This document shows, in pieces, positions 8,503 to 56,241 of a stretch of 64,000 bases of DNA. A program made the translations under genes and the position numbers. The DNA comes from an uncultured Bacteriovoracaceae bacterium (GTDB lineage: Bacteria > Bdellovibrionota > UBA2428), in the NCBI GenBank assembly GCA_964407615.1, contig CAYOWH010000002.1, positions 3,472-67,471 of the forward strand, given 5' to 3'. The notes beneath the pieces are model-generated. The model was not told the DNA's origin and did no database searches. It was given only the letters and a program-made list of their open reading frames with translations. Positions within the stretch are counted from its first letter, which is position 1, and the number at the start of each line of letters is the position of its first letter.

Positions 8503-11500
8503 TTATTTAATTAACGAAAGCCCTTTTGTTAAGGTGTAACTTATTATATCTGTTTGAACTTCCCTCCAAGCGGACAATGATTTAATGTTCTCTGGTATTG
8601 TATTATATTGATCTTGCCAGTTTATAATACCATCGGTCTGTTCATTATTATATCCAGAAACATATGAATAAAATATATAATAATTTGGTATCATATACTG
8701 TGTATAATTTTCAGGAAGCACTAGCCCCCAACCCCATTTATCAGAATAATTACTTAAAGCATATGAAGAATTTGAATTATTTATATTATAAGATGATATA
8801 GGGCCTATTATATTTGTATCAATTAATTTAAAAGTTTCGCTAAATTTTTCAAACGCTACTATAGAAATTCCTGCTGTAATATATGATGTAAAAAAGTCTA
8901 GTTTATCACCCAAATTAATACCATAAATAGATTGAGCATTTCCGTATAGTCCCTTTTTATCAAAATTACATGCTTGTTTATTTCTACTACCACGTAATTT
9001 AGAAAATTTTATTGAAAATATATCTACTAATCTTTTCAAATTAGCAGGAAATGAATTTATTTTACCATTAAAATCGTAAAAATCTTCGTCCATCATTTGA
9101 TGCATGGATTTTAATGAATCTAAATTACATACATCAATATATGAATTATTATCGACAAAATTTGATATCTTTTCATATATCCTTTTTCCCAAAATATTAG
9201 CATCGGAAGATATTGTACCAACTGAAGTTGAAATAAATTGATCAAATAAAACAGGAGAATAATTTAAGTACTCTTGATGGACATAAGATTTTATCTGATT
9301 TCCTAAATCAAAATTTTCATTTACTTTTCTAATTTCATATTTTGGGTTATTCGTTTCAAATGTAGAAAAAACATTGCTATACCCATTTACAATTATTTCG
9401 GAAGGAAAAATATGTTGAAATTTAAATATATGTTTAAAACCATTCCAATCACCATAACCATTGAATAAATCTTGTATTCTACTTTCACTAAAATTATTAT
9501 CATCAAATGGCAATGAACTTATTGAAATATTATTAGTATCCGCTTTGAAATAGTGAAATTTTCTATTATAATCATCTATCACATAAACATTACCATCAGT
9601 GGATCCCGCAATTCCCATCAAATCGCTGACATAATTATATTCACTTTTAATAGAATTTGAAGGAGTATAAAAATATTTTCCAGATAAAGTTTTGTAATTT
9701 ATACAAAACAATTGATTTATATTAGCTGTTACCCAAATATTAGAGTTTTTATCTACAGTCAAATTCCAAGCAGATCCGCTAACAGGAAATGTTGATAAGC
9801 TCTGCGTGTTTTTATCAATTTTAAATATTTTATCTTTCCTAGAAGATAGGACTTCAGATAATGAAAAGTTATCCTTCATTATACCCCATATGTTTCCAGA
9901 TCTATCACTTACAATTTCTGTAAAATAATAACCACTTAAACAATCTATTGAAGCGTTAAAGCTGTAAGTTTTTAAATCCAAATCATATAAATATTTTTCT
10001 ATAAATGAACATAAAGGATTTGTGTATGATATATATAAATTATTATATCTGTCAGTCTCAACTGCTCCCGGTTGAATGTTACTCAACATATTAACGCTCA
10101 CAGTATTATCTAACACACATTTTGGTTTTATTACATCTGATATAATATTATTTGAATTTTTAATTTGAATAGTGCTAATACTATCATGTAATGTTATCCA
10201 AACATTTCCATCTTTATCGCTACAAATATTAGAAGGCGATAAATTAGAAGAATTTAATTCATATTTTAAATTTATAATTGCTTCTGGCTTTTTAAATTCA
10301 AATCTATCATTAGTTAAATTATATTTTACAACCAAATCACTATCAGAATCTGCGACCCATAATTTTTGATAAGGCTCTCCAAGACTAAAATCGGAAGTGA
10401 CGCATAAGGTATAAATTCCAGAAAGATTAGGAACAGATACCACAGTATCGTCAATTGTTTTAACATTAGGATCCACATTATCAGCAATAAATGTTATTTT
10501 ATGGACCTTTTGACTAGCTGGTTCTGGTACTACAGCCAAATTTGATTCCATCAAATATCTTTCTTTAATATTCGGAGATGCTTCTGCGTATAATTTAATA
10601 CCGCTAAGAGGTTTATTAATTGTTACATATCCTTTATAATATCCACCATATTTTTCAGAAGATAATTCTAAAAAGTTTGAATATATTTTATAATCCGAAT
10701 TATTAATTTCTGTATTATTCGAATCTAATAATTTTATTTGTATATAACCATATGGATATTCCTGAATATTCTCATTTGCTGATATTAAAGATGGTATTAT
10801 ATTGTATTTAGAAGCTATATTGTTAATATCCTTAAATCTAACAACAAAAGGGATTTTCTGATTTACAAATTTTTGCCCATATATATCAAAAGTATTAATT
10901 GGATTTCCTAAACCATCATCATCAATCCCATTCGATGTTATGGTCAATTTATAAGGATTTAATTGTTCTATAACTCTATTAAATAAATTAGTGTTTTGAA
11001 CAGTGTTTAAAACATTATAATTCAATATTTCGTAATTTTTATTTAAATTATCTTTATCTTTAAATTTTCTAGTATCAAATGTTAATAATATAGTTGAAGC
11101 TATAACTTGAGTAGCATCTTCATTTTCTATAGGTATATCATCTATAAAATAAAATATTTTTTTACCAGAAGTACCTACAAAACATGCTCCATTATCAGTA
11201 GAATTACAAATTTTTAAAGAACTTAAACTAGAATCATAATTTACATATATTTCATAATTATCAGTTTGAATTCTATCAACAATTTCAAAAACATTTTTCT
11301 TATTTATAGGATCATAAACTTCTGCTATAAATCTTGATGATGGTTTTAGATGTGCCCACTTGTCAGTGTTATACTTATTAGTATCAAATAATGGTGCAGT
11401 AGTTGATAAAGCATTTAAATTAATAAAATATCCCTCATTCTTAACTGCATCATATGTCTGCCAACTGTTAAATCTATATAAATTATAAGGACTCTGAAGC

Positions 11501-11859
11501 TTTCCGGCTTCTTTTTTGGAATTTGATCCAGATAATACTATAGAATCAGATATAAAATCTTTAACCAATACTAATTGCGAAAATGAACTTTTATAACCTA
11601 TTCCGGATTCGTCTAATACATAACATGTAACATTATACCATCCCGGTACAGTGTAGTAATGAGTAGCTGTTAAGGATTTAGAAGTATTTCCATCACCAAA
11701 ATCCCAAAATATATGTGAATTTGAATATCTTTTAGATGTTCCGTCATCTAATTTTGGAATAAATGTAAATGGCGTAATAGAAAGTGTATATGCTGTAGTT
11801 GTAGGAACTCCAGTATGATCATATGTATCAAAATATATATATTTGCTATTATCTTCCAT
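8503..11859 (-). CDS. large baseplate-associated protein (1118 aa) with N-terminal PKD domain and beta-propeller-like repeats. Occupies the T4 gp7 position.
   Basis: N-terminus has ...HIFWDFGDGNTSKSLTATHYYTVPGWYNVTCYVLDESG, the PKD signature. Later repeated DGNVWITLHD / SGNIWGIMKD / NSNIWVTANI / DGNVYVIDDY blocks. Start ATG overlaps the gp6-like stop (TAATG). Confidence 0.6.
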   Translation of the reverse strand: MEDNSKYIYFDTYDHTGVPTTTAYTLSITPFTFIPKLDDGTSKRYSNSHIFWDFGDGNTSKSLTATHYYTVPGWYNVTCYVLDESGIGYKSSFSQLVLVKDFISDSIVLSGSNSKKEAGKLQSPYNLYRFNSWQTYDAVKNEGYFINLNALSTTAPLFDTNKYNTDKWAHLKPSSRFIAEVYDPINKKNVFEIVDRIQTDNYEIYVNYDSSLSSLKICNSTDNGACFVGTSGKKIFYFIDDIPIENEDATQVIASTILLTFDTRKFKDKDNLNKNYEILNYNVLNTVQNTNLFNRVIEQLNPYKLTITSNGIDDDGLGNPINTFDIYGQKFVNQKIPFVVRFKDINNIASKYNIIPSLISANENIQEYPYGYIQIKLLDSNNTEINNSDYKIYSNFLELSSEKYGGYYKGYVTINKPLSGIKLYAEASPNIKERYLMESNLAVVPEPASQKVHKITFIADNVDPNVKTIDDTVVSVPNLSGIYTLCVTSDFSLGEPYQKLWVADSDSDLVVKYNLTNDRFEFKKPEAIINLKYELNSSNLSPSNICSDKDGNVWITLHDSISTIQIKNSNNIISDVIKPKCVLDNTVSVNMLSNIQPGAVETDRYNNLYISYTNPLCSFIEKYLYDLDLKTYSFNASIDCLSGYYFTEIVSDRSGNIWGIMKDNFSLSEVLSSRKDKIFKIDKNTQSLSTFPVSGSAWNLTVDKNSNIWVTANINQLFCINYKTLSGKYFYTPSNSIKSEYNYVSDLMGIAGSTDGNVYVIDDYNRKFHYFKADTNNISISSLPFDDNNFSESRIQDLFNGYGDWNGFKHIFKFQHIFPSEIIVNGYSNVFSTFETNNPKYEIRKVNENFDLGNQIKSYVHQEYLNYSPVLFDQFISTSVGTISSDANILGKRIYEKISNFVDNNSYIDVCNLDSLKSMHQMMDEDFYDFNGKINSFPANLKRLVDIFSIKFSKLRGSRNKQACNFDKKGLYGNAQSIYGINLGDKLDFFTSYITAGISIVAFEKFSETFKLIDTNIIGPISSYNINNSNSSYALSNYSDKWGWGLVLPENYTQYMIPNYYIFYSYVSGYNNEQTDGIINWQDQYNTIPENIKSLSAWREVQTDIISYTLTKGLSLIK

Positions 11860-31211: not shown

Positions 31212-31790
31212 TTAATATGATATTAAATTTGTTTCTATTCTACTAAAAACAAACTGAAAAGATGTGTCTAATTCTCTAGGTTCTCTATGCGAATAATTTA
31301 ATTCCGCCAAAGATATTGGAAATGCATTTTTGTAAACCCATTGTATAACAGGTTTTTCAAATTCGTCTAATGCTACTAATTTAAAATCAGAAGAATATCT
31401 TCCCAATCCAACATCATTCATCAACATATCACCCGAAAATATAGTAGATTTTTCATCCCTTAATATTTGAAGCCATTTATGTATGACCCAATAATTTTTA
31501 AATTCATTATCTATAGTAAAATTTATTGTAATTGGTTCATATGATGGTTTTGCATGAGAGGAAACATATATATTTGCTCCACCATATTTGACTTCAATTT
31601 GAGGTATCAATTCAGCAGGAACAACTGTTCCGTAAACTGAAAATTGCAAAGAATCGAACATTATTTTTTTTGAACTTTTATCATCTATTGTATTAATTCT
31701 TTTTAATTCAGTAGGTATACCCAATGTCAGAATAAATTTATCCGACCTAGATTTGTTTAGTAATGATTGTTTGAAAAAATTATCGCTCAT
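31212..31790 (-). CDS. tail-tube-family protein (192 aa) between terminase and sheath
   Basis: C-terminal AFPISLAELNYSHREPRELDTSFQFVFSRIE resembles T4 gp19 LWPTNVGELQLDWDSNNEIQTFEVTLALDYWE. Start overlaps the terminase stop region. Confidence 0.4.
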   Translation of the reverse strand: MSDNFFKQSLLNKSRSDKFILTLGIPTELKRINTIDDKSSKKIMFDSLQFSVYGTVVPAELIPQIEVKYGGANIYVSSHAKPSYEPITINFTIDNEFKNYWVIHKWLQILRDEKSTIFSGDMLMNDVGLGRYSSDFKLVALDEFEKPVIQWVYKNAFPISLAELNYSHREPRELDTSFQFVFSRIETNLISY

Positions 31791-33465
31791 ATGGTTCTAA
31801 CATTTTCCAACCAGAAATAATTAAATCATCCATATCTGGATCTTTATCCTTTTCCATACCAAAATATGTAGGTAAAGTATTCATATTATCATAGTCAGAC
31901 TTTACTAAGTATTTAACTCCTAAATCTAATTCATTAATAACCATTGGTTTTTTATATTCATCTCTTTCCAAAACTTCATAATATCTTTCTACAATTTCAT
32001 CATATAAAATCATTAATGCCCAAGCTAATGACATTACTCTGTCATCGTGACAATTAGCTTTCGCCCCCCAAATTCCGTTTTTATATCTTGTAAAATCTTT
32101 TAATTCTAAAACAGTATTCATATCATTAATGTGAACACTTTTAGTTTTTAACATCCAATGTCTTAAGTTTTCAATACATCTCCACTTTGTATTATGATGT
32201 GATATCATGCCTAATTGTTCGTTTTTTCTTGAAGCTTGTTTCAAACCCCAAGATACAATATTTTCATAATCATAATTTTTTCTTAAATTATCAACAACTT
32301 GTGCTCCACAGTTATTCCTTTCAATTAAAGCATACGGCCTCCCCCATTGATCTAATATATCAAACAATTTGGAAGAAAATTCAGAAGGGGATATTTTATT
32401 ATTATTATAACATGCTACTTGAATAATATTTCTTGGTTCCGTAATATCTAAAATTTGTATACAAGAAGAATCTCTCCCCAAACCTTCGGCAATATCAACC
32501 CCAGCTACATAGCTCCTTTCATCATTCGGAGTATTCCATATTTTATAACAACCATCTTCTAATAGATATATAGGATCTCTAGCAGAAGATTTCATATTTT
32601 CAAATGCATCCGCATCTAATGCAGATTCTCCAACTTCGTCGAATTCCACTTCATATTCTCTTCTCCATACGTTAGCGTCTCCAATTGAAGCCATTGTATC
32701 TTTTTTAAATTTTTCGTCACGCCCCGGAACTTCATCCCATTTTATTTTCAAAGATTTCCAATTATTGGTGCCTCTCACAGAGGCATCATACAATTTATAA
32801 AATAATCCAGAAGTATCTCTTGGGGTTGATGCCATTATTATTTTTGATTTTTTAGAAGAAGAAATAATTGGATACACAGAAGCCCAAAATTCGTCTAATA
32901 AATTAGCTTCAATCCAATCAGCCTCATCAATAAACAATAAATTGGCCGAAGATCCACGACCAGCAGTTCCAGTTGTAGTTGTAATGCCTATTCTAGATCC
33001 GTTTGCCAATTCCATAGATTCCATTCCATAATAAGTTACAGGCGATTTTAACCAATTTGGAAGATTCTCATAAGCCATTCTAATTCTTTTAAATATTTCT
33101 TTTGCGGTAGATTCTTTATTTGCGACCAACATAATTCGTTGATCTTGTTGGAAGATAGCAGTCCATAAACAAAAAATTGTAGAAATTGTCGATTTGCCCG
33201 TTTGCCTGCTGAACAATAATAGACTAAATCTATTATCTCTAATCATTCTTAATGCTCTTTTTTGATATAAATGTAATTTAATTTTCTGTTTACCTTCATC
33301 TAAATTAATTATATAAAAATGATTTTCCGCAAAATGTAAAACGTTTTCAGAGCATAGTTGCATTTCCGCCAACATGTCTGGAGTATATTCGAACTCAGCC
33401 CCTACTGTAGGAAGATTTGGATTATTTAAATAAATTGGTTTTTTATTTTTTTTATCTACAGCCAT
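31780..33465 (-). CDS. terminase large subunit, T4 gp17-like. Start set at ATG 33465 (MAVDKKNKK...).
   Basis: HLYQKRALRM...SRQTGKST (Walker A), LFIDEADWIE and the nuclease half match T4 gp17. The 44-codon extension up to 33597 is antisense to the plus-strand gene at 33536, so I treat it as spurious. Confidence 0.85.
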   Translation of the reverse strand: MAVDKKNKKPIYLNNPNLPTVGAEFEYTPDMLAEMQLCSENVLHFAENHFYIINLDEGKQKIKLHLYQKRALRMIRDNRFSLLLFSRQTGKSTISTIFCLWTAIFQQDQRIMLVANKESTAKEIFKRIRMAYENLPNWLKSPVTYYGMESMELANGSRIGITTTTGTAGRGSSANLLFIDEADWIEANLLDEFWASVYPIISSSKKSKIIMASTPRDTSGLFYKLYDASVRGTNNWKSLKIKWDEVPGRDEKFKKDTMASIGDANVWRREYEVEFDEVGESALDADAFENMKSSARDPIYLLEDGCYKIWNTPNDERSYVAGVDIAEGLGRDSSCIQILDITEPRNIIQVACYNNNKISPSEFSSKLFDILDQWGRPYALIERNNCGAQVVDNLRKNYDYENIVSWGLKQASRKNEQLGMISHHNTKWRCIENLRHWMLKTKSVHINDMNTVLELKDFTRYKNGIWGAKANCHDDRVMSLAWALMILYDEIVERYYEVLERDEYKKPMVINELDLGVKYLVKSDYDNMNTLPTYFGMEKDKDPDMDDLIISGWKMLEPYER

Positions 33466-33535
33466 AGCGATATTTACAAAAAAATTGTGAAGTTTTAATA
33501 AAAATCTAATTAAAATGACTAAATAGTTTGTAACT

Positions 33536-34117
33536 ATGAGCAATAAATCTCTATTTGACAAACTATTTAATGAAGTAATGGAAGCTGGTCCAGACATGGA
33601 AGCGCAAACCGATGAAGATGCTTTGGAATTACCTCAAGGCGATGAAGGTGGCGATGAAATGGGCAGCGATGAAAGTTTCGGCGATGAAGGTGGCGATATT
33701 ACGGTATCAATGAGTCGTTCCCAAGCAGAAGCATTAAGAGATCTTTTAGATGCCGCTTTAGGTGGTGGCGGAGAAGATGAAGATGAAGATTTTGGAGAAG
33801 AAGAAACTTTAGATATGGGCGGAGAAGGTGAAGAAGGATTGGGCGGTGGAGAATTGGGAGAATCACCAGCAGTTGAAACTCTAGAAGAACTTCCTACTCA
33901 AAAATATGTTGACGCTTTAACTGGTAAGAAAAATAAGGTAGAAGGCGCATTAGCTGCTAAAGATAATGCCGGTAGCGAAGGTTCTGGCGAAGTAACACAA
34001 GCTCATCCTTTAAAGAAAGCTTCATTGGCTTATAATGATGGGAAAGGCAAGAAACATCAAGTTGGTGGCAAATACACTCAACAGAATAAAACCACTTCAT
34101 CTTATCTCAATCAATAA
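33536..34117 (+). CDS. highly acidic Gly/Glu/Asp-rich low-complexity protein (193 aa)
   Basis: ATG ORF divergent from terminase. Has DEGGDEMGSDESFGDEGGD and GGGGEDEDEDFGEEETLDMGGEGEEGLGGGELGE tracts. Locally much higher GC than surroundings. Followed by a strong terminator. Confidence 0.6.
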   Translation: MSNKSLFDKLFNEVMEAGPDMEAQTDEDALELPQGDEGGDEMGSDESFGDEGGDITVSMSRSQAEALRDLLDAALGGGGEDEDEDFGEEETLDMGGEGEEGLGGGELGESPAVETLEELPTQKYVDALTGKKNKVEGALAAKDNAGSEGSGEVTQAHPLKKASLAYNDGKGKKHQVGGKYTQQNKTTSSYLNQ

Positions 34118-35287: not shown

Positions 35288-38200
35288 TTATAATACTTTT
35301 TGGGGACCAGTATTTGTTACTCTATATACAGTGCCATTTTCTCTATGAATGAGAGAATCTTCCCCAGCAATTTGAACAGATGATGTAACGTTTTTCATAT
35401 TAAATCTCTTAAAAAATGGCGTATTAACAGGAAAATCTGGTGGAAATACATCAGCCTTATAACCACCAAAATATACATAATTATCAGAATCTAAGTAACC
35501 AATCATAGTTTGATCTTTGACAGCATTATCGGAAACAAATATATCTATAGCATTATCAACCGTAGAAGATTTATCATAATTATAACATTGCGTAGGCGAT
35601 GTGATTGCAATATCTATAATAGAATTTACTAAACATTGACCTATGTCAACTCCATTATATCCCCAAGAAAATAATCTGCCATCCTTTAATAATGCAAAAA
35701 TTGTAGGGTTATCTTTTCCAGAAACTATTACCTTTTTAACATTTGACAATTCTTCTATTCTTTCAAAATTATTATATGTAACAGTAGAAGTAGAACCTTT
35801 TCCCATTTGACCAAAATTATCGTCACCACAAACCCATAAATAACCTTCTCGATCTATATAATAATTATTTAAATGTCCGCTATACAATCCATCAGATAAT
35901 AAATCTGCATCGTTGATTTCTGATGTTACTCCTCCAAAACTTTTTTTACATATTTCAAATTTAAAATGTGAATGATTGTGCGATGCTTCTGCCACAGGCG
36001 CAGCACCTCTTCCCAGTTGTCCTCTGGTATTAGTTCCAGCTGACCGAATCTTTCCATCTTTAGTAATTATAGTGAGCAAACTAGAAGTGCCATCAGAAGC
36101 AGTTATGGCATAATCTTTAATCTGCCCAGAAAATTGTTTTATTTTAGTTGGATTTATAGATACCATAGCAGCAGCAGTTGCTCCACTTTTACCATAACCT
36201 ATTCCAAATGCGCCATGTCTACTATACCCCCAAACCCATAAACTATCATCGATATCTAATGCGGCAAAAAATGGATAGTTTGTCCCAATTCTTTTAAAAG
36301 ATTTAAATTTAACTTCTTTTTCATTTTCTAAAATAATAGTTTTTATAAATCCAGCAGTAGATTTATTTGTCATGTTTCCTATTCCAAAAGCACCTCTAGA
36401 ATTATTATTATAAAATACGATATCTTTAGAAGAAGATCCTGTATTAATATAACCGACTCTATCGCCAAGAGTATCTGTAAAATATAAATAATTAGAATCT
36501 TGATCTAAATATAACGCCATTGGCTTCCAATTTATAACACTTTTTGTAGTATCTAAATTTCCTTTCACTGATCCTGAAAATAATGATACATTATTTGGAA
36601 AATCAGTATTTGATTTGACAATTACATGACTCGTTTGCGAAAGTATATATAAATTTTTTCCTATAGCCTCAATTGAGGCGGGGTTTGGGACACCAGCTAA
36701 CGATCCGACTCCATATTTTAAAGATTTTCTTGCAGGAGCACCAATAATAGTATCCACCTTTTTTGTTCCAGACAACTCTACAGTTCTAATAGAATTACTA
36801 TTATACTCAGCTATATACAACATATCACCAAGTAATTTTATACTCTTTCGAAGTTTTCCAAATTTAGCATTCAATCCGTTAGTAGCATTTTGATAGCCTT
36901 CAGACGATCCAGCAATAGTTGTAACTGGATGATTTGGTGTCGCAAAATCAACTTGTCTTATAGCAATGCTATCCGAAAAATACAGTTTTTTAGTGACTTT
37001 ATCGTATGCCATTCCTGTAGGATATCCTAAGTTAGCCTTTAATGCACTTAAGCTATCAGCAGTATTTATAACTCCCGTACCAGCAACTGTTGTCACAGGA
37101 TAATTGCCACTTAAAACTATTTTCCTAATACGTCCCGTATCTGAAACAAATAATGCAGAAACTCCATCATATTCAATTTGCACAGGTGCCAAAAATTTAG
37201 AGCCAGTTCCAATAGGACCATCCAAAAAACCGCTTGCCCCCGTACCAGCTATAATACTTAAACTAGGAGTAGTTGCCGTTAAATTAATCATCTTAATATT
37301 AAAATTACCAGTATCTACTATATATAATCTATTATCAATAAATCTTAATCCCCTAGGATCTTTGAAGCTAGCTTTAGACAAAATACCCGTAGCATTACCA
37401 GCAGCACCAGTTCCAGCAAATTTAAATGCGGATACTATTCCAGTAGTACTGTCGATAACAATTTTTTTAATATTAAAATTTGCAGTATCTGATACATAAA
37501 ATGTATTATCATTTTCCCCTCTGCAAATATCCGTAGGAGCATTAAAAGCAGCAGCAAGATAAACATCCCCAGCAACATATGTTGAAACGGCAGACGTGGA
37601 AGTGTTTAATGTTCTGATACATTTATTTTCAGTATCCGCAATATATAATGTAGATCCATCATTACTAATTGCTAATCCAGTCGGAGTATTAAATCTTGCA
37701 TTTGTTCCTATTGCATCTGTAACACCAGCAGCTCTGGAACTTCCAGCTATAGTATTTACATACCATTTATCTGTAGGTCTTTCTAATTCAGTCGTAGTTA
37801 ATTTTCTAATTCTGTGATTATCTGAAACATACATTATGTTTCTATTTGTGGGATCTATTACTATTTTTCTGGGGGAATGAAATCTTGCGGTATACCTTTC
37901 GCCATTAGCATCACCACTTAATGCTACAGTTCCCCTTTGAATACCAGATACACCAGCTATTATAACAGTATTTTTATCAGTATCGTTTTTAATTCTTCTG
38001 ATATTATGATTTAAATTATCACACACATAAATGTCCCCAGTACTTAAATCTTGTGCTATACCATTTGGAGTATTAAATCTGGAAGCACTTCCAGTTCCCG
38101 GAATTCCACCTTTTTGTCCATCTGTAGCATTGTTATTAGCTGTCGGGCTTCCTGCAATGTCTATAACATTACCCAAATAATCTATAAATTTTATTTGATG

Positions 38201-39553
38201 ATCACATGAAACTATATATTGTTCTTTTACACTAAGACCATTCACATTCGATGATGGAATACCACTCAACTCAACTTTATTAGATATAATATCTGATGGT
38301 AAAGGAATGGCAGATAATGGATTAATATATCTAAACTCAATTTCAGGAATTATTTTTCTAATTCCCCCATTTTTCGCCTCTGCTATCACTATATAATCCC
38401 TATCATTAGAAATAGTTATACCTCTAGGATCTATATATGCAGTAGACAACTCACCAACATTAGTTCCACAAACCCAAATATCACCCCCAGCTTCGATGTC
38501 TTCGTCTGGATATACTAAAGCTACGCCACTACTAACATTCCAAGATAATGCGCCTATAGAAGCTGTTTTATTTTCATCTAAATAATCGCCTCCATAAGGG
38601 GCATATTTTTTAGAATCTTTATATCCATCATATAATTTCCAAAAAGGAACTCTAACATTTAATGTAGGTATTACAGTAGTAATAACAGAACCTCCGAATT
38701 TTGATGGATGCAAATTACCCCAAGCAATAACTCTATTATCATTAGTCAAAGCTGCATATCCACTAGATGCCTGTGATAAATTAGCCAAATATTTAATATA
38801 GCCCTGTTCAACAATAATAGTCTTTTCGGGAGAATTAACTACCCAAGATTTTAAATTATTATTAAAACTAATATTTGCCATATCCGGATATGGCAAATTT
38901 TCAGGATCTACATTATTAAAATTCTCCGGTGAAATTCTTTTTCGCACCCATTTTTCATCCAAATAAATTATAGTACTTCCACTAATAGCGTCTACATTTG
39001 ATATAGATAAACCATTTGAATCAATATCCAATCCACCATTTGGTTTAATTATATTACCTAATTTATCAGTAGTAACTGCTTTATCTACTAACTTTACAGT
39101 AGATACAGAATTTGAAGAAAGTTTATCAATAGTAACTGAATTCGAAGCTAATTTTAAATCAGTGACAGAAAAATCATTCAATTTATCAGTAGTAACTGCT
39201 TTATCTACTAACTTTACAGTAGATACAGAATTTGAAGAAAGTTTATCAATAGTAACTGAATTCGAAGCTAATTTTAAATCAGTGACAGAAAAATCATTCA
39301 ATTTATCAGTAGTAACTGCTTTACTGTTAATTGAAGCGGTAGTGACTGTATTATTTGCTAAATTAATATTATAACTTTTACTAGGATCAAAATAAGCGGA
39401 TACTTTATTATTTAAGTTAATATTATTAACTATAAAATTTTCAATATTACTTAATCTTGTAGAATATGTAGATAACCCTTGATACAATGGGAAATAATCT
39501 CCTCCCGATAATTTTGCCACTTCATCTAATTGATTTATTCTTTTATTCGCCAT
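35288..39553 (-). CDS. giant tail-fibre/adhesin protein (about 1421 aa): tail-fibre repeats, then NHL-repeat beta-propeller, then RCC1-like beta-propeller
   Basis: N-terminal repeats AVTTDKLNDFSVTDLKLASNSVTIDKLSSNSVSTVKL. NHL-like YVSDNHRIRKL / YVCDNLNHNIRRI / YVSDTANFNIKKI / YIVDTGNFNIKMI. RCC1-like WVWGYSRHGAFGIG / GTNTRGQLGRG / CGDDNFGQMGKG / WGYNGVDIGQ. Track start 39574 is TTG, so I use ATG 39553. Confidence 0.7.
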   Translation of the reverse strand: MANKRINQLDEVAKLSGGDYFPLYQGLSTYSTRLSNIENFIVNNINLNNKVSAYFDPSKSYNINLANNTVTTASINSKAVTTDKLNDFSVTDLKLASNSVTIDKLSSNSVSTVKLVDKAVTTDKLNDFSVTDLKLASNSVTIDKLSSNSVSTVKLVDKAVTTDKLGNIIKPNGGLDIDSNGLSISNVDAISGSTIIYLDEKWVRKRISPENFNNVDPENLPYPDMANISFNNNLKSWVVNSPEKTIIVEQGYIKYLANLSQASSGYAALTNDNRVIAWGNLHPSKFGGSVITTVIPTLNVRVPFWKLYDGYKDSKKYAPYGGDYLDENKTASIGALSWNVSSGVALVYPDEDIEAGGDIWVCGTNVGELSTAYIDPRGITISNDRDYIVIAEAKNGGIRKIIPEIEFRYINPLSAIPLPSDIISNKVELSGIPSSNVNGLSVKEQYIVSCDHQIKFIDYLGNVIDIAGSPTANNNATDGQKGGIPGTGSASRFNTPNGIAQDLSTGDIYVCDNLNHNIRRIKNDTDKNTVIIAGVSGIQRGTVALSGDANGERYTARFHSPRKIVIDPTNRNIMYVSDNHRIRKLTTTELERPTDKWYVNTIAGSSRAAGVTDAIGTNARFNTPTGLAISNDGSTLYIADTENKCIRTLNTSTSAVSTYVAGDVYLAAAFNAPTDICRGENDNTFYVSDTANFNIKKIVIDSTTGIVSAFKFAGTGAAGNATGILSKASFKDPRGLRFIDNRLYIVDTGNFNIKMINLTATTPSLSIIAGTGASGFLDGPIGTGSKFLAPVQIEYDGVSALFVSDTGRIRKIVLSGNYPVTTVAGTGVINTADSLSALKANLGYPTGMAYDKVTKKLYFSDSIAIRQVDFATPNHPVTTIAGSSEGYQNATNGLNAKFGKLRKSIKLLGDMLYIAEYNSNSIRTVELSGTKKVDTIIGAPARKSLKYGVGSLAGVPNPASIEAIGKNLYILSQTSHVIVKSNTDFPNNVSLFSGSVKGNLDTTKSVINWKPMALYLDQDSNYLYFTDTLGDRVGYINTGSSSKDIVFYNNNSRGAFGIGNMTNKSTAGFIKTIILENEKEVKFKSFKRIGTNYPFFAALDIDDSLWVWGYSRHGAFGIGYGKSGATAAAMVSINPTKIKQFSGQIKDYAITASDGTSSLLTIITKDGKIRSAGTNTRGQLGRGAAPVAEASHNHSHFKFEICKKSFGGVTSEINDADLLSDGLYSGHLNNYYIDREGYLWVCGDDNFGQMGKGSTSTVTYNNFERIEELSNVKKVIVSGKDNPTIFALLKDGRLFSWGYNGVDIGQCLVNSIIDIAITSPTQCYNYDKSSTVDNAIDIFVSDNAVKDQTMIGYLDSDNYVYFGGYKADVFPPDFPVNTPFFKRFNMKNVTSSVQIAGEDSLIHRENGTVYRVTNTGPQKVL
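39061..39323. repeat. perfect 120-bp tandem duplication (2 copies plus about 23-bp partial third) inside the 1421-aa fibre gene
   Basis: 39061-39180 is identical to 39181-39300. Each unit holds two diverged about 60-bp subunits. Encodes duplicated KLNDFSVTDLKLASNSVTIDKLSSNSVSTVKLVDKAVTTD. Confidence 0.9.
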
Positions 39554-39561
39554 AACCTTAT

Positions 39562-42500
39562 TTATATCTTCCAATATACATTATTATCAAATACTATATA
39601 ATCATCATTTTCAATATTAACATATTCTGATGTAACATTTAACTTAGCCACGCTACTCCTCTGATCTGTCGAAACATCCATTATGACGACATAATACTCT
39701 CCAGTATCAAATAATTGCAAATCATTTTTATAATATATGGAATTAGTTTCCGAATCAATACTTCCGGTGTCAGTTCTCATCCATTGATACGTTAATGTAG
39801 ACGATGAAGTAGTTTTTATAGAAAACTGAATATTATCACCCACTTGTTTTTCAATAGGATATCCTAAATATTGCTTCCCATCAATATATAATGGATTTTT
39901 TAATCGTATTATTACATTATAATTTATTCCACCAGATAATGGAAGTTTATCCAGTCTAACCTTAGAATAATCTATAATTTCAATTATAGTTGTATCCAAA
40001 GGTAATATATCAGAAATTATTTCAGACCCCACAATTATACCTACAGTGCATCCTATATCCACAACATAACTGGTAGTGGATGTTTCAATTGAACTGTCAA
40101 TATAACTTACATTAACTAAAGAAGGATTTTTAACTTTAGTAGGACTTAAAGTAAAGTTATAGTTACTCCTATCTTTATATGTTTCATTTTGAAATGCTAA
40201 TAATCGTACATTTGATGGATCTAAATCTATGGGCGAAGTTATATTATAATCATTCGAATCCAATGATAGAGATTTTCTAAGTGGTGTAAAATTTGAAATG
40301 TAATACAACGCCTTTCCTTTAATAATTCTAAGATTAGATATATAACCATTATAATAACTCTCAGTCGGAGAGCATCCTATAAATAAATTATAATTAGTGT
40401 TATTAAAATTTTTATCAAAAAGACCACTATTCAACAATATTCCATCTACAAACAAATATACAATTCCAGATTTTCTAGTTACTGCTATATGATACCAAGT
40501 GTTCTTAATAAAATTAAATGAAGCACTAATATTGGGTTCTCCAACTATTACTTCATTAAATGAAAATCCAGTGTTTGCAATGTTTAAAGACCAAGTTCCA
40601 GAAGCTCCATCTCTTGTTTTCCTATTTGTCACAATTCTAGTCCCCCCACCATCTGGAAGATTATTCATAATATAAGCTTCAATAGTAAAGTCTTCGGTTC
40701 CAAATGCAAAAGCACTAAGATTTGTAGGTCTTTGAAATATTTCTATATATTGTGATTGAGATGAATCAAAATATCCTGCTGGTAAATAAAAATTTGATGT
40801 ATACAATACAGAACTTGGAACTATTTGCTTACTAATAGTAGGTGTTTCATATTCCAATTTACAAACTTCTCCGCCTCTATTTTCATAAAATTCAACTTGT
40901 ATATCATAAAATACGTTTGCGGTAAGGTTAATTGTGCCTGTAGTTGTTATAGGAGCAGTTATTATCCATTTATCTATAATTAGAACACCATTTACCCACA
41001 CCCTAACCCCATCGTCATGAGTAATATGAAATGTATAAAGTTCTGTTGTTGTTGGCTTTATATAACCTTTCCACCTCGCACTGAACGAATCTCTACCTCC
41101 ATTTACAAATGTACCAGTTCCCCAATTTGAATCACTATTAATATTTTCAATTACGGTAGATGATGGTGCTCCTGTTAATTCTTTATTATCCCAATATGCC
41201 GCAAATAAACCTGTTCCAGTAGTATTAGAAACCATACGCGGGCCACTAGGAGTACCACTTAATGTCAAATTATATTTATTGTCACTATTATCAAGAAACG
41301 TATCATCCTGTAGTGTTAACAATGAAGTCGAATAACCTGTTCCTTTTTCAGAAATTAATTTTGAATATAAAGAAGGTTTTGTAAATGTTGGAGAACCCTC
41401 ATAAAGAAGCTTGTCTGATATTCTAAAATTTGATATATATCCTTTAAAATTGGATTCCGTAATTGAACTAAATGGTGTAAAAGTTTCAATAGAAGGTGTT
41501 CCGACTATCGATAATGATTTTGCTGTTAAACTATTGTCTATGAATCTATTACTTTGCAACGTTAACAAAGAAACGTTTGACGGAATAGGGTTTACTACAT
41601 TTCCTGTTGCGTTTCCATTTGTTGATGTGGTAAGTGGAATAGTGCTTGGTTTAAATTCTCCTGTGTAAAGAGCTTGTCCTTTTGTTACTCGGAGGTCGGA
41701 AATATATCCACTTAGAGATACGTTTGCACTAGTATTATAATTACTACCAATCATAGGTCCGTATGTAATTCCGGGATTAATTGTCCCCCCAGCACTACTA
41801 TTAGTGTCAACTATAGTTCCATTTAAAAATGAATATAAGTTATTACCTGAGCGCACTAAAGCCACATGACACCAAGTGTTTAACGGAGGATTTGGTGATT
41901 TAACACTTTTATTTGTTGTTCCAATGTATATATCAGAACTTGTAGTGGTATCTGTAACATAAAGAACTACACTACTGGTTTGAGCAAGTTTACCATCAGT
42001 TTGACCACAATATATAATTGAGGTTCCTGCTTTCATTTTATACACCCATGCTTCAATAGTAAAATCTCCATCTCCAAAATGTAACGAATCTATATTTAAA
42101 TCTAATGTTAATTTCGAACTGCCATCAAAATACCCACTCCAACCATTTGTAGGAGTAGGCCCACCAAAAATATTTCCAATCGCTAAAGTATAAGGCGCAT
42201 CTGAAGTCGATGCTGTTCCAGATTTATTAAACGTTCCAGCAGATTGTCCATTTATATAATAATTTAAATTGCCTGATGCTAAAGAATCATCCCACATTAT
42301 AGCAACATGAGACCATGTATTGGCAGTTAACGAAACACTAGAACTGCTGTTAGATATTGGAGCTGAAGCTGTAATTTTACTTCCTATAATAAATTTCGAC
42401 CCATTAGATATCCAAAACCCTAATGTTCCATTGTTTTGAAGAATTATAGACATTCCCGGTTTACTAGAAGAATTATAATTTGTGTCTAATAATGTTTGAT

Positions 42501-44670
42501 CTGTTCCTATATCAGTAGGATATATCCAAAATTCAATAGTATATTTAGAATTTTTAGTATGTAAGAACTTCCAATCAGAATCTTTTCCAGCACTTAAATA
42601 TCCAGTACCATCAAAATACGAACTCCAACCTAAATTTGTTATAATTCTAGAAACTTTAGATGTATCTGGAACAGAGACTTCCGCATCAACATTAATTGTA
42701 TTTGCGATAGCAAGTTTATCAATTCTAAAAGAAGTAAGGTTTATAATTTCAGATATAATAGAATCATTAGGAATTCCGATAGATTTTATTTTAGCACAAA
42801 CTAATAATGAAGATGTGTTAAAAGTGGACAATATATTACTATTTGTCAATGTACTCACTAATAAAGAAGATATAATTGTATCTATTAATATCTCAACATC
42901 AATTTGAGTAGCAGTAGCATCATAAAATATTTCAAATTCAGTATCACTAATAATTTTAGTTATAAATGAACCATCTGGTATATTTGGACCACTAACTCTC
43001 ATTCCAACACTTATACCATCAGTACTTTGTACCACAATTACCTTACTATCTTTTGTGGTTTTCGCTAACATTCTCTTCTTGGAGGCAAATCTAACAGTTA
43101 CATTAAATCCATCATCAGAAGCAACATTACTAACAATTACAGTGTTGAAATCATCAATTCTAACCACCACTGTATTTTTAGGAAATAAACTTGTAACAAC
43201 ATCCATCCCTAAAAATATGCCAACTGTAGATGGGACTTTTATCGTATTACTATTTTTTAATACAGTACAATTATCAACATTTGAAGCAGGTATTATATCC
43301 GCTACAATATCATAAACCGCTCCACCCTCTACTGTGTTGTTATTAATCCTTATTGTTGTAGGACTAATTAATTCCGTTATTTTAGAATCTATGGGTATTT
43401 TAGGACCCGAAATTCTCATTCCGGGGACTAAATATGGAGTTTCCGTAATAGTTAAAACATCCGTATATTTAGTAACATCAACTCTATTTATTGTAACTGA
43501 TGTCGATAAATTAGCTATACTTTTGCCGGTAGACAATGCAAGTGTGTTTATCCCAAATGTACTTTCATCAGTAATTGAATTTATTAAACTTGACGATAAT
43601 ATGTAAGGAAGTTGTGTCGTATATGAATATATTGGACCCGTATCTGTCAATATTTGATTGATTTCAGGGTTATATATCCTCATTCCAGTACATAATTTTT
43701 TAGCAGTTTGCCCTAAATTAACCCATTTTTTATCTATAGTTACAGTACTATTATTTTGTATAGTATCAATATATGCAGTTGTTATAAAATTATCATCAAA
43801 TTTTATAGTACTATCCAATACAACTTTAGCAGTTTTACTTATAGAACTTACATTTGTGATATTAGTTATTACGCAATCGTAATCTCCTACAAAACTCCTG
43901 TTTACAATAGGTTCAAAATATACACATGTTAATACATTTACATCTGTCAATGTGGTTAATGTATCCGGTATTTCTACTTTATTTTTTCTCCAATAAAATG
44001 TAGCTGGATATGCTCCACTAATTTCACATTTTAATGTTAAAGTTCCATTAGGAATTATTTTAACATTTTCTGGATCTTTAGTTACTTTTATAGGATAAAT
44101 TAAATCTAAATTTACTTTATTTGATGTTATAGAAGTTTTTGCATTTGAAACTATGCAATAATATTGTCCTAATTTTAATTCAGTTACATCAAAAACAGTT
44201 AAACTTTTTGTAAAAGTTAACAAAGATTTATTTTCATAAAACCACTCTACTGTTGGACTCCCTCCACCTTCATAATCTATAAAAAATACAGCATTTTCAT
44301 TTCTTTTTACAAATAATGGACTTGGTTGTAATGTTATAGCCAAAGGAGCAAATACTTGTAAAGTAACGATATCACTCTTAACGCTACCTGCTAAATTTGT
44401 TATTAAGCAAAAATAAGATCCACTGTCATTCTGAGATGCATTTTGTAATTTTAAATTTGATGAAGTTGCTCCAACAATTGGAGAATTATCTTTAAACCAC
44501 TGATAAGTTATTGGCCTTGTACCTCTAGCAAAAACTTCGAAAGTGTAATTATCTGAATATTCTATCACCCCACCTACAGGTTGTTTGATTATTTTAACAT
44601 TTTTTACGGAGCCATATCTTATGTTAGATATCCCACTAAAATGCTTTAACCCTGTAAAATATCCTCCCAT
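39562..44670 (-). CDS. giant multidomain adhesin-like protein (1702 aa): 3 N-terminal Ig(I-set)-like domains, 3 LamG/ConA-like lectin domains, a PA14 domain, C-terminal Ig-like domain
   Basis: Ig-like: [13 protein letters not shown]...[26 protein letters not shown]...[24 protein letters not shown]...[12 protein letters not shown], C-terminal [11 protein letters not shown]...[12 protein letters not shown]. LamG-like: YTIEFWIYP...[19 protein letters not shown]...[28 protein letters not shown]...[19 protein letters not shown]. PA14: [14 protein letters not shown]...[24 protein letters not shown]. Confidence 0.65.
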   Translation of the reverse strand: [1702 protein letters not shown]

Positions 44671-44674
44671 ATTA

Positions 44675-46174
44675 TTATGCTACATTAATAACTATCCAAG
44701 AACTACCATCATAAACAAATTTAGAATAATTTGTCACATTTTGTAATAATACACCATAGTAATCATTTACTTGTACTACGTGCCCGCCACCCGGTAATCT
44801 ATAAGATACTTCATAAATTAATCCAATATTATTTGAATTAATAAGAGGTAAATTTAAATTTACAATACAATTATCAGCACTAACTGCCCAAAATTTCGGA
44901 GAATCGACATTTAAACTTAACGTCGTGTTTATGTTATAATAAACAGCTGTTAAATTTACGTATGTCGATTTAGGTCTTTGCCATTGTGATGAATTAGCAG
45001 TTAATGAAGTATAAGATTGATTCCAATTACCAGATGTATTTGTTAATGCTGTATAAGACTGGTTCCAATTCGAAGAAGTGGCAGTTAATGAAGTATACGA
45101 TTGATTCCAATTACCAGATGTAGTTGTTAATGCTGTATACGATTGATTCCAATTACCAGAAGTGGTCGTCAGTGCAGTATACGATTGATTCCAATTACCA
45201 GATGTATTTGTTAATGCTGTATAAGACTGGTTCCAATTACCAGAAGTGGTCGTCAGTGCAGTATACGATTGATTCCAATTTGAAGAAGTGGCAATTAATA
45301 CTGCATAAGATTGATTCCAGTTAGCGGAAGTATTTGTTAATATAGTATAAGATTGACTCCAATTAGAAGAATTGGCAGTTAATACTGTGTATGTTTGATC
45401 CCATTTAGCGGAATTTGAAGTTAATGTGGTATATGATTGATTCCAATTACCAGAAATTGACTGTAGATTATTTAAAATTGGGGAAACTATAGATCCCTGT
45501 ACTACAAGATCATCAACCGTAGTTATTCCACTAACAGATAAATTTTTACTTAATATAAAATTTTCGGATGCACTTAAATCTAATCCAAATTTTATATTAG
45601 TTTTATTAATTTCTAAACAATCATCTTTTAAATTAGAAGAAAATTTAGCAATAATATTATTCGTTGACGAATTCTGTTTTACAGATAATGTCGGACTAAT
45701 AGAACTATTATTATTTGAAATGTTTATATAATTATTTGATGAAATATAATTAGATACAGTTAAAATCCCAGTAACATTTAAAGCATCACTTATTTTAGTT
45801 TGAGGGGTATTTAAAAATACCCCATTTGCATATGATATTGTTAATGTGTTGTTCCCATTTCCCAAAACTACAGAATCTGATAAAATTGTTTCAGTGGAAG
45901 TTCCGGATAATTGAGTTATATACAATATATCTTCCACTGTCATCTCTCCAACAACTTTAGCATTCCCACCAACTTCAAATCCATCTTGTATTTTTGCGGA
46001 TAATAATTCTATCCCTGAACTTGCGCTTAATACCCCATTTACTACAAAATCTCCCTGAAAAGGTTCTTCTCTAGAAGCAATTGGATCCGTAGCACTATCC
46101 GGAAATCCTATTGTAGGAATCGAATGGTGATTTTTTCTATGTAATTTATCATGAAATCTTGCATTTCCGGCCAT
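44675..46174 (-). CDS. fibre protein (499 aa) with about 12 tandem 14-aa repeats (WNQSYTALTxTSGN)
   Basis: ATG start. The repeat block is encoded by 42-bp DNA repeats. Confidence 0.7.
   Translation of the reverse strand: MAGNARFHDKLHRKNHHSIPTIGFPDSATDPIASREEPFQGDFVVNGVLSASSGIELLSAKIQDGFEVGGNAKVVGEMTVEDILYITQLSGTSTETILSDSVVLGNGNNTLTISYANGVFLNTPQTKISDALNVTGILTVSNYISSNNYINISNNNSSISPTLSVKQNSSTNNIIAKFSSNLKDDCLEINKTNIKFGLDLSASENFILSKNLSVSGITTVDDLVVQGSIVSPILNNLQSISGNWNQSYTTLTSNSAKWDQTYTVLTANSSNWSQSYTILTNTSANWNQSYAVLIATSSNWNQSYTALTTTSGNWNQSYTALTNTSGNWNQSYTALTTTSGNWNQSYTALTTTSGNWNQSYTSLTATSSNWNQSYTALTNTSGNWNQSYTSLTANSSQWQRPKSTYVNLTAVYYNINTTLSLNVDSPKFWAVSADNCIVNLNLPLINSNNIGLIYEVSYRLPGGGHVVQVNDYYGVLLQNVTNYSKFVYDGSSWIVINVA
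44975..45465. repeat. about 12 imperfect 42-bp tandem repeats (coding)
   Basis: ttccaattaccaga recurs at 45021, 45063, 45105, 45147, 45189, 45231, 45273, 45315... Confidence 0.85.
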
Positions 46175-55545: not shown

Positions 55546-56241
55546 CTACGAACCATATTCACGCAAGAATTTTTGATTGCTTTCCTTCCATGATTTATCA
55601 TCCAACGATCTCAATCCGGGAGACAAATGTATTATATGTATTGGATACACTCCTATTTTTAATTTTAATTTATTAGCATCCAAACAGCTAGCAATGTCAT
55701 AATGGTGGAATGAATAATTCTCATTAAATTTCCATCCAACTTCTATTATTTTTTTGAGATTAATTGCTAAAAATACTCCATCTGCTATAGCTACTCTAGA
55801 AGGTGTAGGACCAAATGCAGTATAATATATTTGTTTTTCATTAACTGGATGCTGTACTTGGCCTCTTTGGTCCTTCTTTTCAGTCATGATATGCCACAAT
55901 GATGGAAATTTTATTTTAGGATTCAGTCCTCCGGCCAAACCTATTATATCATAATTGCATTCATCTACAGCTTTTTGCAATTTTTCAACCAATTTTCTAT
56001 CATCTAAATATACATCATCATGAACAAAAACTAAAAAATCATAATTTTTATTTTTATAATATTCTATACATCTATTGTAAACTTTAGACAAAGATTCTTT
56101 ATTTTCCCATATAATATCCAAAACAACATTATTTGAAAAATTACAATCTTCGAATGATCTATATATCATTAAAGATTTGGCTTCCGATTGTTTCTTCTGT
56201 GTGCAGGATATAATTGCAACTTTAGAAGTAATTAAATTCAT
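55546..56241 (-). CDS. putative GT-A-type glycosyltransferase (231 aa, DxD-like motif)
   Basis: DFLVFVHDDVYLDD and IIGLAGG in a Rossmann-like alternation. No other diagnostic motif. Confidence 0.3.
   Translation of the reverse strand: MNLITSKVAIISCTQKKQSEAKSLMIYRSFEDCNFSNNVVLDIIWENKESLSKVYNRCIEYYKNKNYDFLVFVHDDVYLDDRKLVEKLQKAVDECNYDIIGLAGGLNPKIKFPSLWHIMTEKKDQRGQVQHPVNEKQIYYTAFGPTPSRVAIADGVFLAINLKKIIEVGWKFNENYSFHHYDIASCLDANKLKLKIGVYPIHIIHLSPGLRSLDDKSWKESNQKFLREYGS

Follow-up and report, generated by a model that had tools for sequence, protein, structure and literature searches.

A phage tail-fibre protein with a predicted propeller-in-propeller head

Propellers are documented in the receptor-binding proteins of several phages, such as phi11, PRD1 (P2), phiKZ (gp131C) and those carrying endosialidases, and in phi11 Gp45 as well as in the K1F and phi92 endosialidases each chain of a trimeric stem bears a single propeller (PMC4901313). 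The tail-fibre proteins of the Nitratiruptor siphophages NrS-2 and NrS-3 have been noted to contain an NHL domain (PMC9723563), and the RCC1-like proteins of jumbo phages have been remarked on, their function not being known (PMC7247149). Here we analyse a fibre gene in a 64,000-nucleotide stretch of DNA assembled with an uncultured Bacteriovoracaceae bacterium (GCA_964407615.1, contig CAYOWH010000002.1, positions 3,472 to 67,471). This stretch, called the window below, belongs to a contractile-tailed phage whose core is T4-like, and all gene coordinates count from its first letter. The encoded protein joins NHL and RCC1-like propellers in a single chain, and comparison with its homologues argues that the former are housed in a loop of the latter.

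Domain composition of the fibre protein

The fibre is encoded by a single long open reading frame (ORF) on the minus strand, which covers positions 35288–39574 if counted from a TTG codon. We take the ATG at 39553 as the real start, giving a product of 1421 residues, because AAGG lies a few bases upstream, because the stop codon of the upstream gene lies 6 bases ahead of this ATG, and because the homologues likewise start with MANK. The exact protein is on record as P0001, carried by an NCBI contig of 118.7 kb.

A preliminary description made from the letters of the sequence had recognised a fibre protein with tail-fibre shaft repeats, and this identification stands. Residues 63–171 match the PHROG tail-fibre families 892 (E 2.5e-15) and 28766 (E 8e-14), and a tblastn search of phage records with the whole fibre gave matches confined to the shaft repeats, which are 35–49% identical to annotated tail fibres of T7-like cyanophages and other phages (residues 64–199 for S-CBP4, S-TIP37 and further annotated tail fibres). 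According to a repeat census, the repeats take the form (S/A)V(T/S)xxKLxxx in nine to ten units of 10 residues; the motif had been quoted as SVTTDKL, for which the protein actually reads AVTTDKL, in three copies at residues 79, 119 and 159. The number of repeats differs between homologues, and the 120-nucleotide tandem duplication found in the window gene represents four shaft units copied very recently.

Two further regions flank the shaft. The first 64 residues form an adaptor that is likely to be the virion-attachment module, as judged from its position in the protein; the N-termini of P0006 and P0009 are shorter and mostly unaligned with it. The neck on the other side carries the motif IIYLDEKWVRKRI (family consensus VLxYDGxKWV), which may resemble the foldon motif of fibritin.

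The two propeller types proposed for this protein are both confirmed by Pfam profiles, above their cut-offs and far beyond chance. For NHL (PF01436), the whole protein scores 65.5 bits and the isolated block 75.2 bits against a cut-off of 20 (E 2.6e-18 to 2.2e-21), with the signal spread over three to four separately significant stretches. RCC1_2 (PF13540) scores 46.3–47.4 bits against a cut-off of 22 and RCC1 (PF00415) 32.6–38.2 bits against 21.7, with repeat E-values of 3e-12 and 1e-7, while the whole-domain profile WD40_RLD (PF25390) reaches 79 bits, under its cut-off of 150, over profile positions 53–278 of 363. NCBIfam gave no useful match. Among proteins of solved structure, the NHL block resembles by sequence the NHL domains of NHLRC2 and SOQ1 (E 3e-20 to 2e-18), and the C-terminal part resembles HERC2, UVR8, RPGR and RCC1.

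An RCC1-like domain interrupted at a common site

The preliminary description placed the RCC1 repeats after the NHL repeats. The RCC1-like domain is instead discontinuous: it begins at residue 249, is broken at 366 and resumes at 1054 to run to residue 1421, and the break falls within a signature hairpin, whose halves WVCGTNV and GAFGIG stand 687 residues apart. RCC1-like strands are seen in the first segment (YAALTNDNRVIAWGN and DIWVCGTN), which also gives a weak profile-profile match to the C-terminal blades (hhalign P about 1e-3). In the alignment of the homologues, invariant columns concentrate in residues 249–365 and 1057–1408, with few between.

The relatives of this domain support the topology. 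An exhaustive search of 1.84 billion representative proteins returned 51 proteins at E 1e-30 or better. One group carries the domain uninterrupted (P0127, P0137, P0138, P0182, P0202, P0205, P0213, P0223, P0256 and P0281), another has it split at a common site (the window cluster, P0007, P0147, P0163 and P0172), and a third consists of generic multi-repeat RCC1 giants. The uninterrupted relatives are 510–1020 residues long. When residues 373–1040 were deleted from the window protein, the resulting query matched P0126–P0129 (582–602 residues) over 96–98% of its own length in one local alignment each, and the alignment with P0127 passes unbroken through the junction. When all are aligned together by MAFFT, WVAGSNQ is directly followed by GDLGVG in the short proteins, and at this hairpin (WVxGxNx followed by GxLGxG) the fibre family carries an insert of 349 residues in P0007 or of 655–701 residues in the remaining members. 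Because the alignment places all inserts there, we locate the insertion at the tip of the hairpin that follows repeat unit two. With the insert removed, the rejoined hairpin is recognised as an RCC1 unit (E 2e-4).

A profile of the uninterrupted proteins maps onto ten split proteins (the window protein and nine others) in two complementary, barely overlapping pieces, at about positions 46–198 and 187–587. The first piece ends at profile position 189–198 and the second resumes at 187–201 in all ten, the window protein having its first segment at 67–193 and its second at 190–576, and the C-terminal segment is without precisely the two units furnished by the upstream segment. A model of P0127, with the family as alignment, shows one compact domain (predicted template modelling score, pTM, 0.79; mean predicted local distance difference test score, pLDDT, 73). 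Its top 40 or so fold matches in the Protein Data Bank (PDB) are all of the RCC1 family (UVR8, the RLDs of HERC1 and HERC2, RCC1 and RPGR; E about 1e-17), with target-normalised template modelling (TM) scores of 0.64–0.69 over 450–540 alignment columns, and 0.67 for the seven-bladed UVR8. As read from sequence and profile comparisons, the NHL pair is nested in the RCC1 signature hairpin that follows repeat unit two of about eight; counts from sequence and from secondary structure assigned by DSSP put two units ahead of the insert and six behind it.

A serial arrangement would do without nesting: residues 249–366 would form a small domain of their own or the decayed remnant of a partial duplication, and the C-terminal segment would be a complete propeller. 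Such an arrangement would suit the six clear repeat units that the C-terminal segment has by itself, and an RCC1_2 match in residues 249–366 that stays below threshold (E 0.005). It would also suit the AlphaFold2 model of the window protein (residues 222–1421). The preliminary description had proposed such a model, which turned out confident in the NHL block and poor at residues 222–372, with pLDDT block means of about 24–54 and no confident placing of this part. Since the model is poor there, nesting in the window protein rests on homology to the uninterrupted relatives. We nonetheless consider a serial arrangement very improbable, given that the segments are complementary in ten of ten split proteins, that the uninterrupted relatives align through the junction and that P0127 models as a single compact domain; moreover, the supposed separate domain, residues 249–366, is the best-conserved segment of the head.

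The insert held by this hairpin has more blades than had been described. Five NHL motifs had been quoted, all of which are present (at residues 509, 575, 686, 744 and 802), and had been counted as at least five blades. A blade profile derived from the fibre itself recovers nine blades, and DSSP applied to the AlphaFold2 model, whose pLDDT block means in the NHL block are mostly 60–91, identifies 12 four-stranded blades between residues 379 and 1048. In Foldseek searches the block matches the NHL domain of SOQ1 (7djj; target-normalised TM 0.70, 347 columns), and also NHLRC2, teneurin and the tandem six-bladed arrays of LRP6 and LRP2. The insert of P0007 measures 349–355 residues by MAFFT and profile mapping, which is the size of one propeller. 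These three results, the 12 modelled blades, the fold matches and the shorter insert of P0007, are therefore best modelled as two six-bladed NHL propellers, NHL-A and NHL-B, in most members and one in P0007.

Several observations concern the origin and variation of the insert. A direct repeat of 52 nucleotides (37286–37337 and 37460–37511, 81% identical), its copies 174 nucleotides or one blade apart, links NHL blades 6 and 7, a sign of either a recently duplicated blade or homogenisation among blades. A search for template repeats or silent cassettes, like those of diversity-generating retroelements, as a source of variation found none; the only repeats within the gene were the shaft duplication and a blade-to-blade repeat. 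Outside the phage family, the closest relatives of the NHL block are giant cellular surface proteins with about 30% identity (P0008, P0018, P0024, P0065, P0074, P0040 and P0087; the named ones belong to Verrucomicrobiota), of which P0040, P0074 and P0087 likewise join immunoglobulin (Ig), NHL and RCC1 domains, and P0008 (locus L004) is surrounded by ordinary metabolic genes. These relatives may be a clue to where the module came from or to the lineage of the host. A separate NHL-like gene near an uninterrupted RCC1-like gene in L010 was considered as the source of the insert and rejected, as the two share only generic blade similarity (E 0.006). In P0155, a metagenomic protein of 1696 residues, the RCC1-like domain is broken at profile positions 177–233 and 403–500 by inserts of about 360–420 residues without NHL signal, which suggests, at the level of sequence, that other loops of the scaffold may also accept insertions.

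Conservation pattern and proposed function

The segments of the head evolve at different rates. In most pairs of homologues the RCC1-like segments are the best-conserved parts (mean identities of 60% and 56%), the first being 50–65% identical to its homologues, or 48–65% in seven homologues if its boundaries are set at residues 249–372. NHL-B, on the other hand, shares 36–38% identity with the four closest homologues, against 50–65% for the other head segments, and is the most divergent segment in every pair closer than about 50% overall. Between the window protein and P0002 the figures are 36% for NHL-B and 52–61% for the other segments, between P0002 and P0003 64% and 74–77%, and in the closest pair, P0003 and P0004, 91% and 95–98%, with 31 of the 73 differences falling in NHL-B. 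The residues of the NHL block that are invariant in eight homologues are G, P, F, I, L, Y, T and A only; the homologue alignment contains no family-invariant acidic, amide or His residue in this block, and the polar residues conserved at 6 of 7 mostly occupy canonical positions of the blade motif.

Because the NHL part is variable on a conserved RCC1-like scaffold, and because its invariant residues are structural only, we favour a receptor-binding fibre, a role that is plausible from the sequence comparisons. Our overall model, in which we place moderate confidence, is the fibre of a distant T4-like myovirus in which a conserved RCC1-like platform bears a host-specific NHL pair. Mechanistically, the adaptor of residues 1–64 would fix the fibre to the virion, and the shaft of residues 65–170, a rod of 10-residue repeats whose length would be altered by tandem duplication, would probably be trimeric; we infer the trimer from the type of shaft, from the fusions to Gp34 and collar domains seen in relatives (see below) and from the precedent of phi11 Gp45 and the endosialidases. 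After the short neck, every chain would end in a large globular head, namely an RCC1-like propeller of about eight units whose hairpin after unit two would be opened to hold the two NHL propellers (687 residues). The RCC1-like propeller, which other phage fibre proteins carry at their tip without interruption, would act as the conserved platform, while the NHL pair, above all NHL-B, would contact a ligand of the host cell envelope and set host specificity.

An enzymatic head, also raised in the preliminary description, would assign a different task to the same propellers: one or both NHL domains would serve as a lactonase, esterase or polysaccharide-degrading domain clearing a capsule or envelope layer. 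Phage tailspikes with propeller-shaped depolymerases are known (PMC4901313), one homologue carries the Joint Genome Institute (JGI) label 'sugar lactone lactonase YvrE', and the Pfam profiles Arylesterase (PF01731, E 1e-11) and SGL (PF08450, E 1e-6 to 9e-9) match above their cut-offs. However, each of these matches spans one blade (positions 49–85 of 86 for Arylesterase and 131–164 of 246 for SGL) and so reflects the shared blade motif, with no complete catalytic domain. SOQ1 and NHLRC2, to which the NHL block is structurally closest, are NHL scaffolds and not hydrolases, and no part of the head is less conserved than this block, which would be unusual for an active site. The composition of its invariant residues and the blade-motif positions of its conserved polar ones equally disfavour catalysis, and we hold an enzymatic head to be very unlikely.

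The gene neighbourhood bears on another possibility, that of a fibre on the neck or collar, in the manner of a fibritin whisker, or of an adhesin of general use for particles or non-host surfaces, as opposed to an infection-triggering baseplate fibre. The fibre gene stands directly beside a gene that matches a PHROG 'head closure' family and lies near the terminase, and the Ig-rich neighbouring genes suggest general adhesion functions; the putative foldon-like motif of the neck would also fit a fibritin-like whisker. In T4, wac and gene 12 are found in the corresponding region, with wac beside genes 13 and 14. The position of the fibre gene is syntenic in four phage loci, the arrangement being kept in L001, L002 and L003: in these three homologue loci it sits between an Ig-domain protein and a neck-like gene of 251–253 residues, which is followed by terminase, tube, sheath and baseplate genes.

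Other observations speak against a collar fibre or general adhesin. The gene directly upstream of the fibre encodes a protein of 1702 residues (39562–44670, minus strand) with three Ig, three LamG-type and one PA14 domain, which matches PHROG baseplate wedge subunit families together with Hoc-like decoration families. The shaft repeats are of the kind found in annotated tail fibres, and relatives fuse the head to tail-fibre domains: P0147 (2556 residues) has the trimerisation domain of the T4 long tail fibre Gp34 followed by an NHL-in-RCC1 head, and P0182 (883 residues) has a Phage Tail Collar domain, which is a tail-fibre domain, followed by an uninterrupted RCC1-like domain. As far as their domain matches tell, these two proteins tie the module to tail fibres by a route that does not depend on the shaft repeats. 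The fast evolution of one propeller, in turn, agrees with host-range pressure. A collar fibre or general adhesin is thus unlikely in our view, and a receptor-binding tail fibre remains the reading that we prefer.

That preference has to be set against several observations. NHL-A has diverged as far as NHL-B in the most distant pairs, and the faster change of NHL-B could reflect relaxed constraint, not host-driven diversification. Most fibres vary at their C-terminal tip, whereas here the C-terminal segment is conserved; conserved polar residues are also richer in this RCC1-like segment (14%) than in the NHL block (8%), and, going by these residues, the RCC1-like domain could be the ligand-binding part. 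The fibre gene adjoins a neck-type gene, which is compatible with a collar or whisker location. Finally, the number of blades in the RCC1-like domain is seven or eight.

Genome context and relation to known systems

The coordinates of the gene and its parts are collected in Table 1. Among the structural and packaging genes of the window are those for sheath, large terminase, tube and two T4-type baseplate proteins, and its replication genes encode a family-B DNA polymerase, a DnaB-type helicase and gp32-like, RecA/UvsX-like and gp44-like proteins. The G+C content is about 29%, and a search for tRNA genes in the window found none. By sequence, none of the isolated phages is close: megablast with 15 kb around the fibre gene gave no match in 50,697 phage records, and identity to isolates is at most 37% for the terminase and at most about 35% for the sheath. 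Full-length homologues of the fibre from other metagenomes are 33–50% identical.

Table 1. The fibre gene and its parts in the window
Feature	Position	Strand	Remarks
Complete fibre gene, 1421 codons and stop	35288..39553	-	ATG 39553, preceded by AAGG
N-terminal adaptor, residues 1–64	39362..39553	-	61–66% identity in the four closest homologues
Shaft, residues 65–170, nine to ten 10-residue repeats	39044..39361	-	PHROG 892/28766, tblastn, repeat census
Perfect 120-nucleotide tandem duplication, 2.2 copies, 100% identity	39060..39323	-	Four shaft repeats
Neck/linker, residues 171–248	38810..39043	-	21–42% identity, no profile match
RCC1-like first segment, residues 249–366, two repeat units	38456..38809	-	Ends with half-hairpin WVCGTNV
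Inserted NHL propeller A, residues 367–714, blades 1–6	37412..38455	-	Pfam NHL/TEN_NHL/SGL, AlphaFold2 DSSP, Foldseek
Inserted NHL propeller B, residues 715–1053, blades 7–12	36395..37411	-	AlphaFold2 DSSP, Pfam
RCC1-like second segment, residues 1054–1421, six repeat units	35291..36394	-	Starts with half-hairpin GAFGIG

Other genes of the window deserve mention. A fibre-like protein of 499 residues (44675–46174, minus strand) consists in part of about fourteen 14-residue repeats, NWNQSYTALTxTSG, encoded by a 42-nucleotide tandem array at 44916–45503; Pfam, PHROG and NCBIfam gave no match to it. Its C-terminus reads ...FVYDGSSWIVINVA, to which the YDGxxWV motif in the neck of the fibre family (about residues 195–206 in the window protein) is akin, and presumably resembles the foldon motif of T4 fibritin. 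A protein of 1118 residues (8503–11859, minus strand) combines a PKD domain with a weak Reg_prop propeller repeat and may be another propeller-bearing structural protein of the same phage. The longest terminase ORF (31780–33597, minus strand) begins 45 codons upstream of its likely start, MAVDKK..., and overlaps an acidic ORF of 193 residues on the plus strand (33536–34117); the N-terminal extension is probably not translated. In L003 (15919–18992) a Terminase_6N ORF, a TnsA-like endonuclease ORF and a Terminase_6C ORF follow one another, so that the large terminase there looks as if split by insertion of a mobile endonuclease. Lastly, a family-2-like glycosyltransferase gene (55546–56241, minus strand) lies between the DnaB-type helicase gene and the RecA/UvsX-like gene.

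Receptor-binding proteins decide which bacteria can be infected, and in uncultured aquatic phages they are mostly unannotated. The family described here supplies a recognisable fibre-tip domain, the RCC1-like propeller with its RVPF...DYLDEN signature, together with a precise and conserved insertion site and the prediction that the second NHL propeller varies with the host. If the nesting is true, it would offer a compact natural case of one propeller bearing one or two others in a hairpin loop, useful for protein engineering and for annotating the host-range determinants of metagenomic phages. More tentatively, the RCC1-like propeller might act as a display platform in widespread uncultured T4-like phages, with modules (one or two NHL propellers, or inserts of the P0155 type) plugged into its blade loops; should this somewhat speculative idea be true, the platform would constitute a modular propeller-in-propeller system for host-range change. 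The finding answers no long-standing open question.

Among described proteins, phi11 Gp45 of a Staphylococcus phage offers a close parallel, with an N-terminal stem, a distal platform and a propeller belonging to each chain, the face of which is the proposed ligand-binding site (PMC4901313). Unlike in the window fibre, each of its chains bears a single five-bladed propeller with tower domains after it, there are neither NHL or RCC1 sequence repeats nor nested domains, and the phage is a siphovirus that infects a Gram-positive host; between the window fibre and Gp45 no sequence similarity was found. With the cellular members of the RCC1 family (RCC1, UVR8, the RLDs of HERC1 and HERC2, and RPGR) the fibre shares the hydrophobic strand, the WG, the GxNxxGQLG hairpin and the fold. 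It differs from them in its count of about eight units instead of seven, in the 687-residue insert, in scoring below the WD40_RLD cut-off and in the motif RVPFWxxYDGY...PYGGDYLDEN of unit 2, which is specific to the fibre's own family. In the extracellular context of a virion, guanine-nucleotide exchange activity would not be expected. A role as DNA organisers has been suggested for phage RCC1-like proteins (PMC7247149), which does not suit a shaft-bearing protein in a tail module. In a paper on an Ostreococcus virus the term RCC1 denotes strain numbers of a culture collection and has no bearing on this family. As for the NHL part, it has the blade motif and fold of NHLRC2, the lumenal domain of SOQ1 and the NHL domain of teneurin, and unlike all three it places two tandem propellers inside another propeller.

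Closer at hand, the metagenomic proteins P0126–P0129, P0137, P0138 and P0182 contain the same RCC1-like domain including the RVPF...DYLDEN motif. These uninterrupted relatives occur in T4-like structural gene clusters (in L011 with Gp23 and prohead protease genes nearby; P0128 lies downstream of the T4-type prohead protease and the Gp23 capsid gene), and differ from the window fibre in having no NHL insert and, most of them, no repeat shaft, P0137 having an N-terminal extension of 455 residues. A library of viral structures holds many propeller proteins of uncultured Caudovirales, some annotated as RCC1, and also annotated tail fibres of the Pseudomonas phages Littlefix and PollyC, so propeller-tipped fibres are not new as a class.

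The comparison with T4 itself is one of shared context and distinct tips. As in T4, the presumed trimeric fibre belongs to a contractile-tailed phage, and the earlier suggestion that its head differs from the T4 gp37 and gp12 tips is borne out, as Pfam, PHROG, structure-sequence and tblastn searches detect no similarity to them; for gp38, too, no sequence or profile match to the tip domain was found in the window fibre (Pfam, PHROG, tblastn). The T4 fibre tips are interwoven beta-helical needles, whereas the tip of the window fibre would consist of globular propellers. In the searchable literature we found neither an RCC1-like family of fibre tips nor a propeller within a propeller in a virus, an absence that does not prove novelty. 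Against the background of propeller-tipped fibres already known, this fibre tip sets itself apart by its predicted nested architecture and by a small, coherent family of metagenomic relatives.

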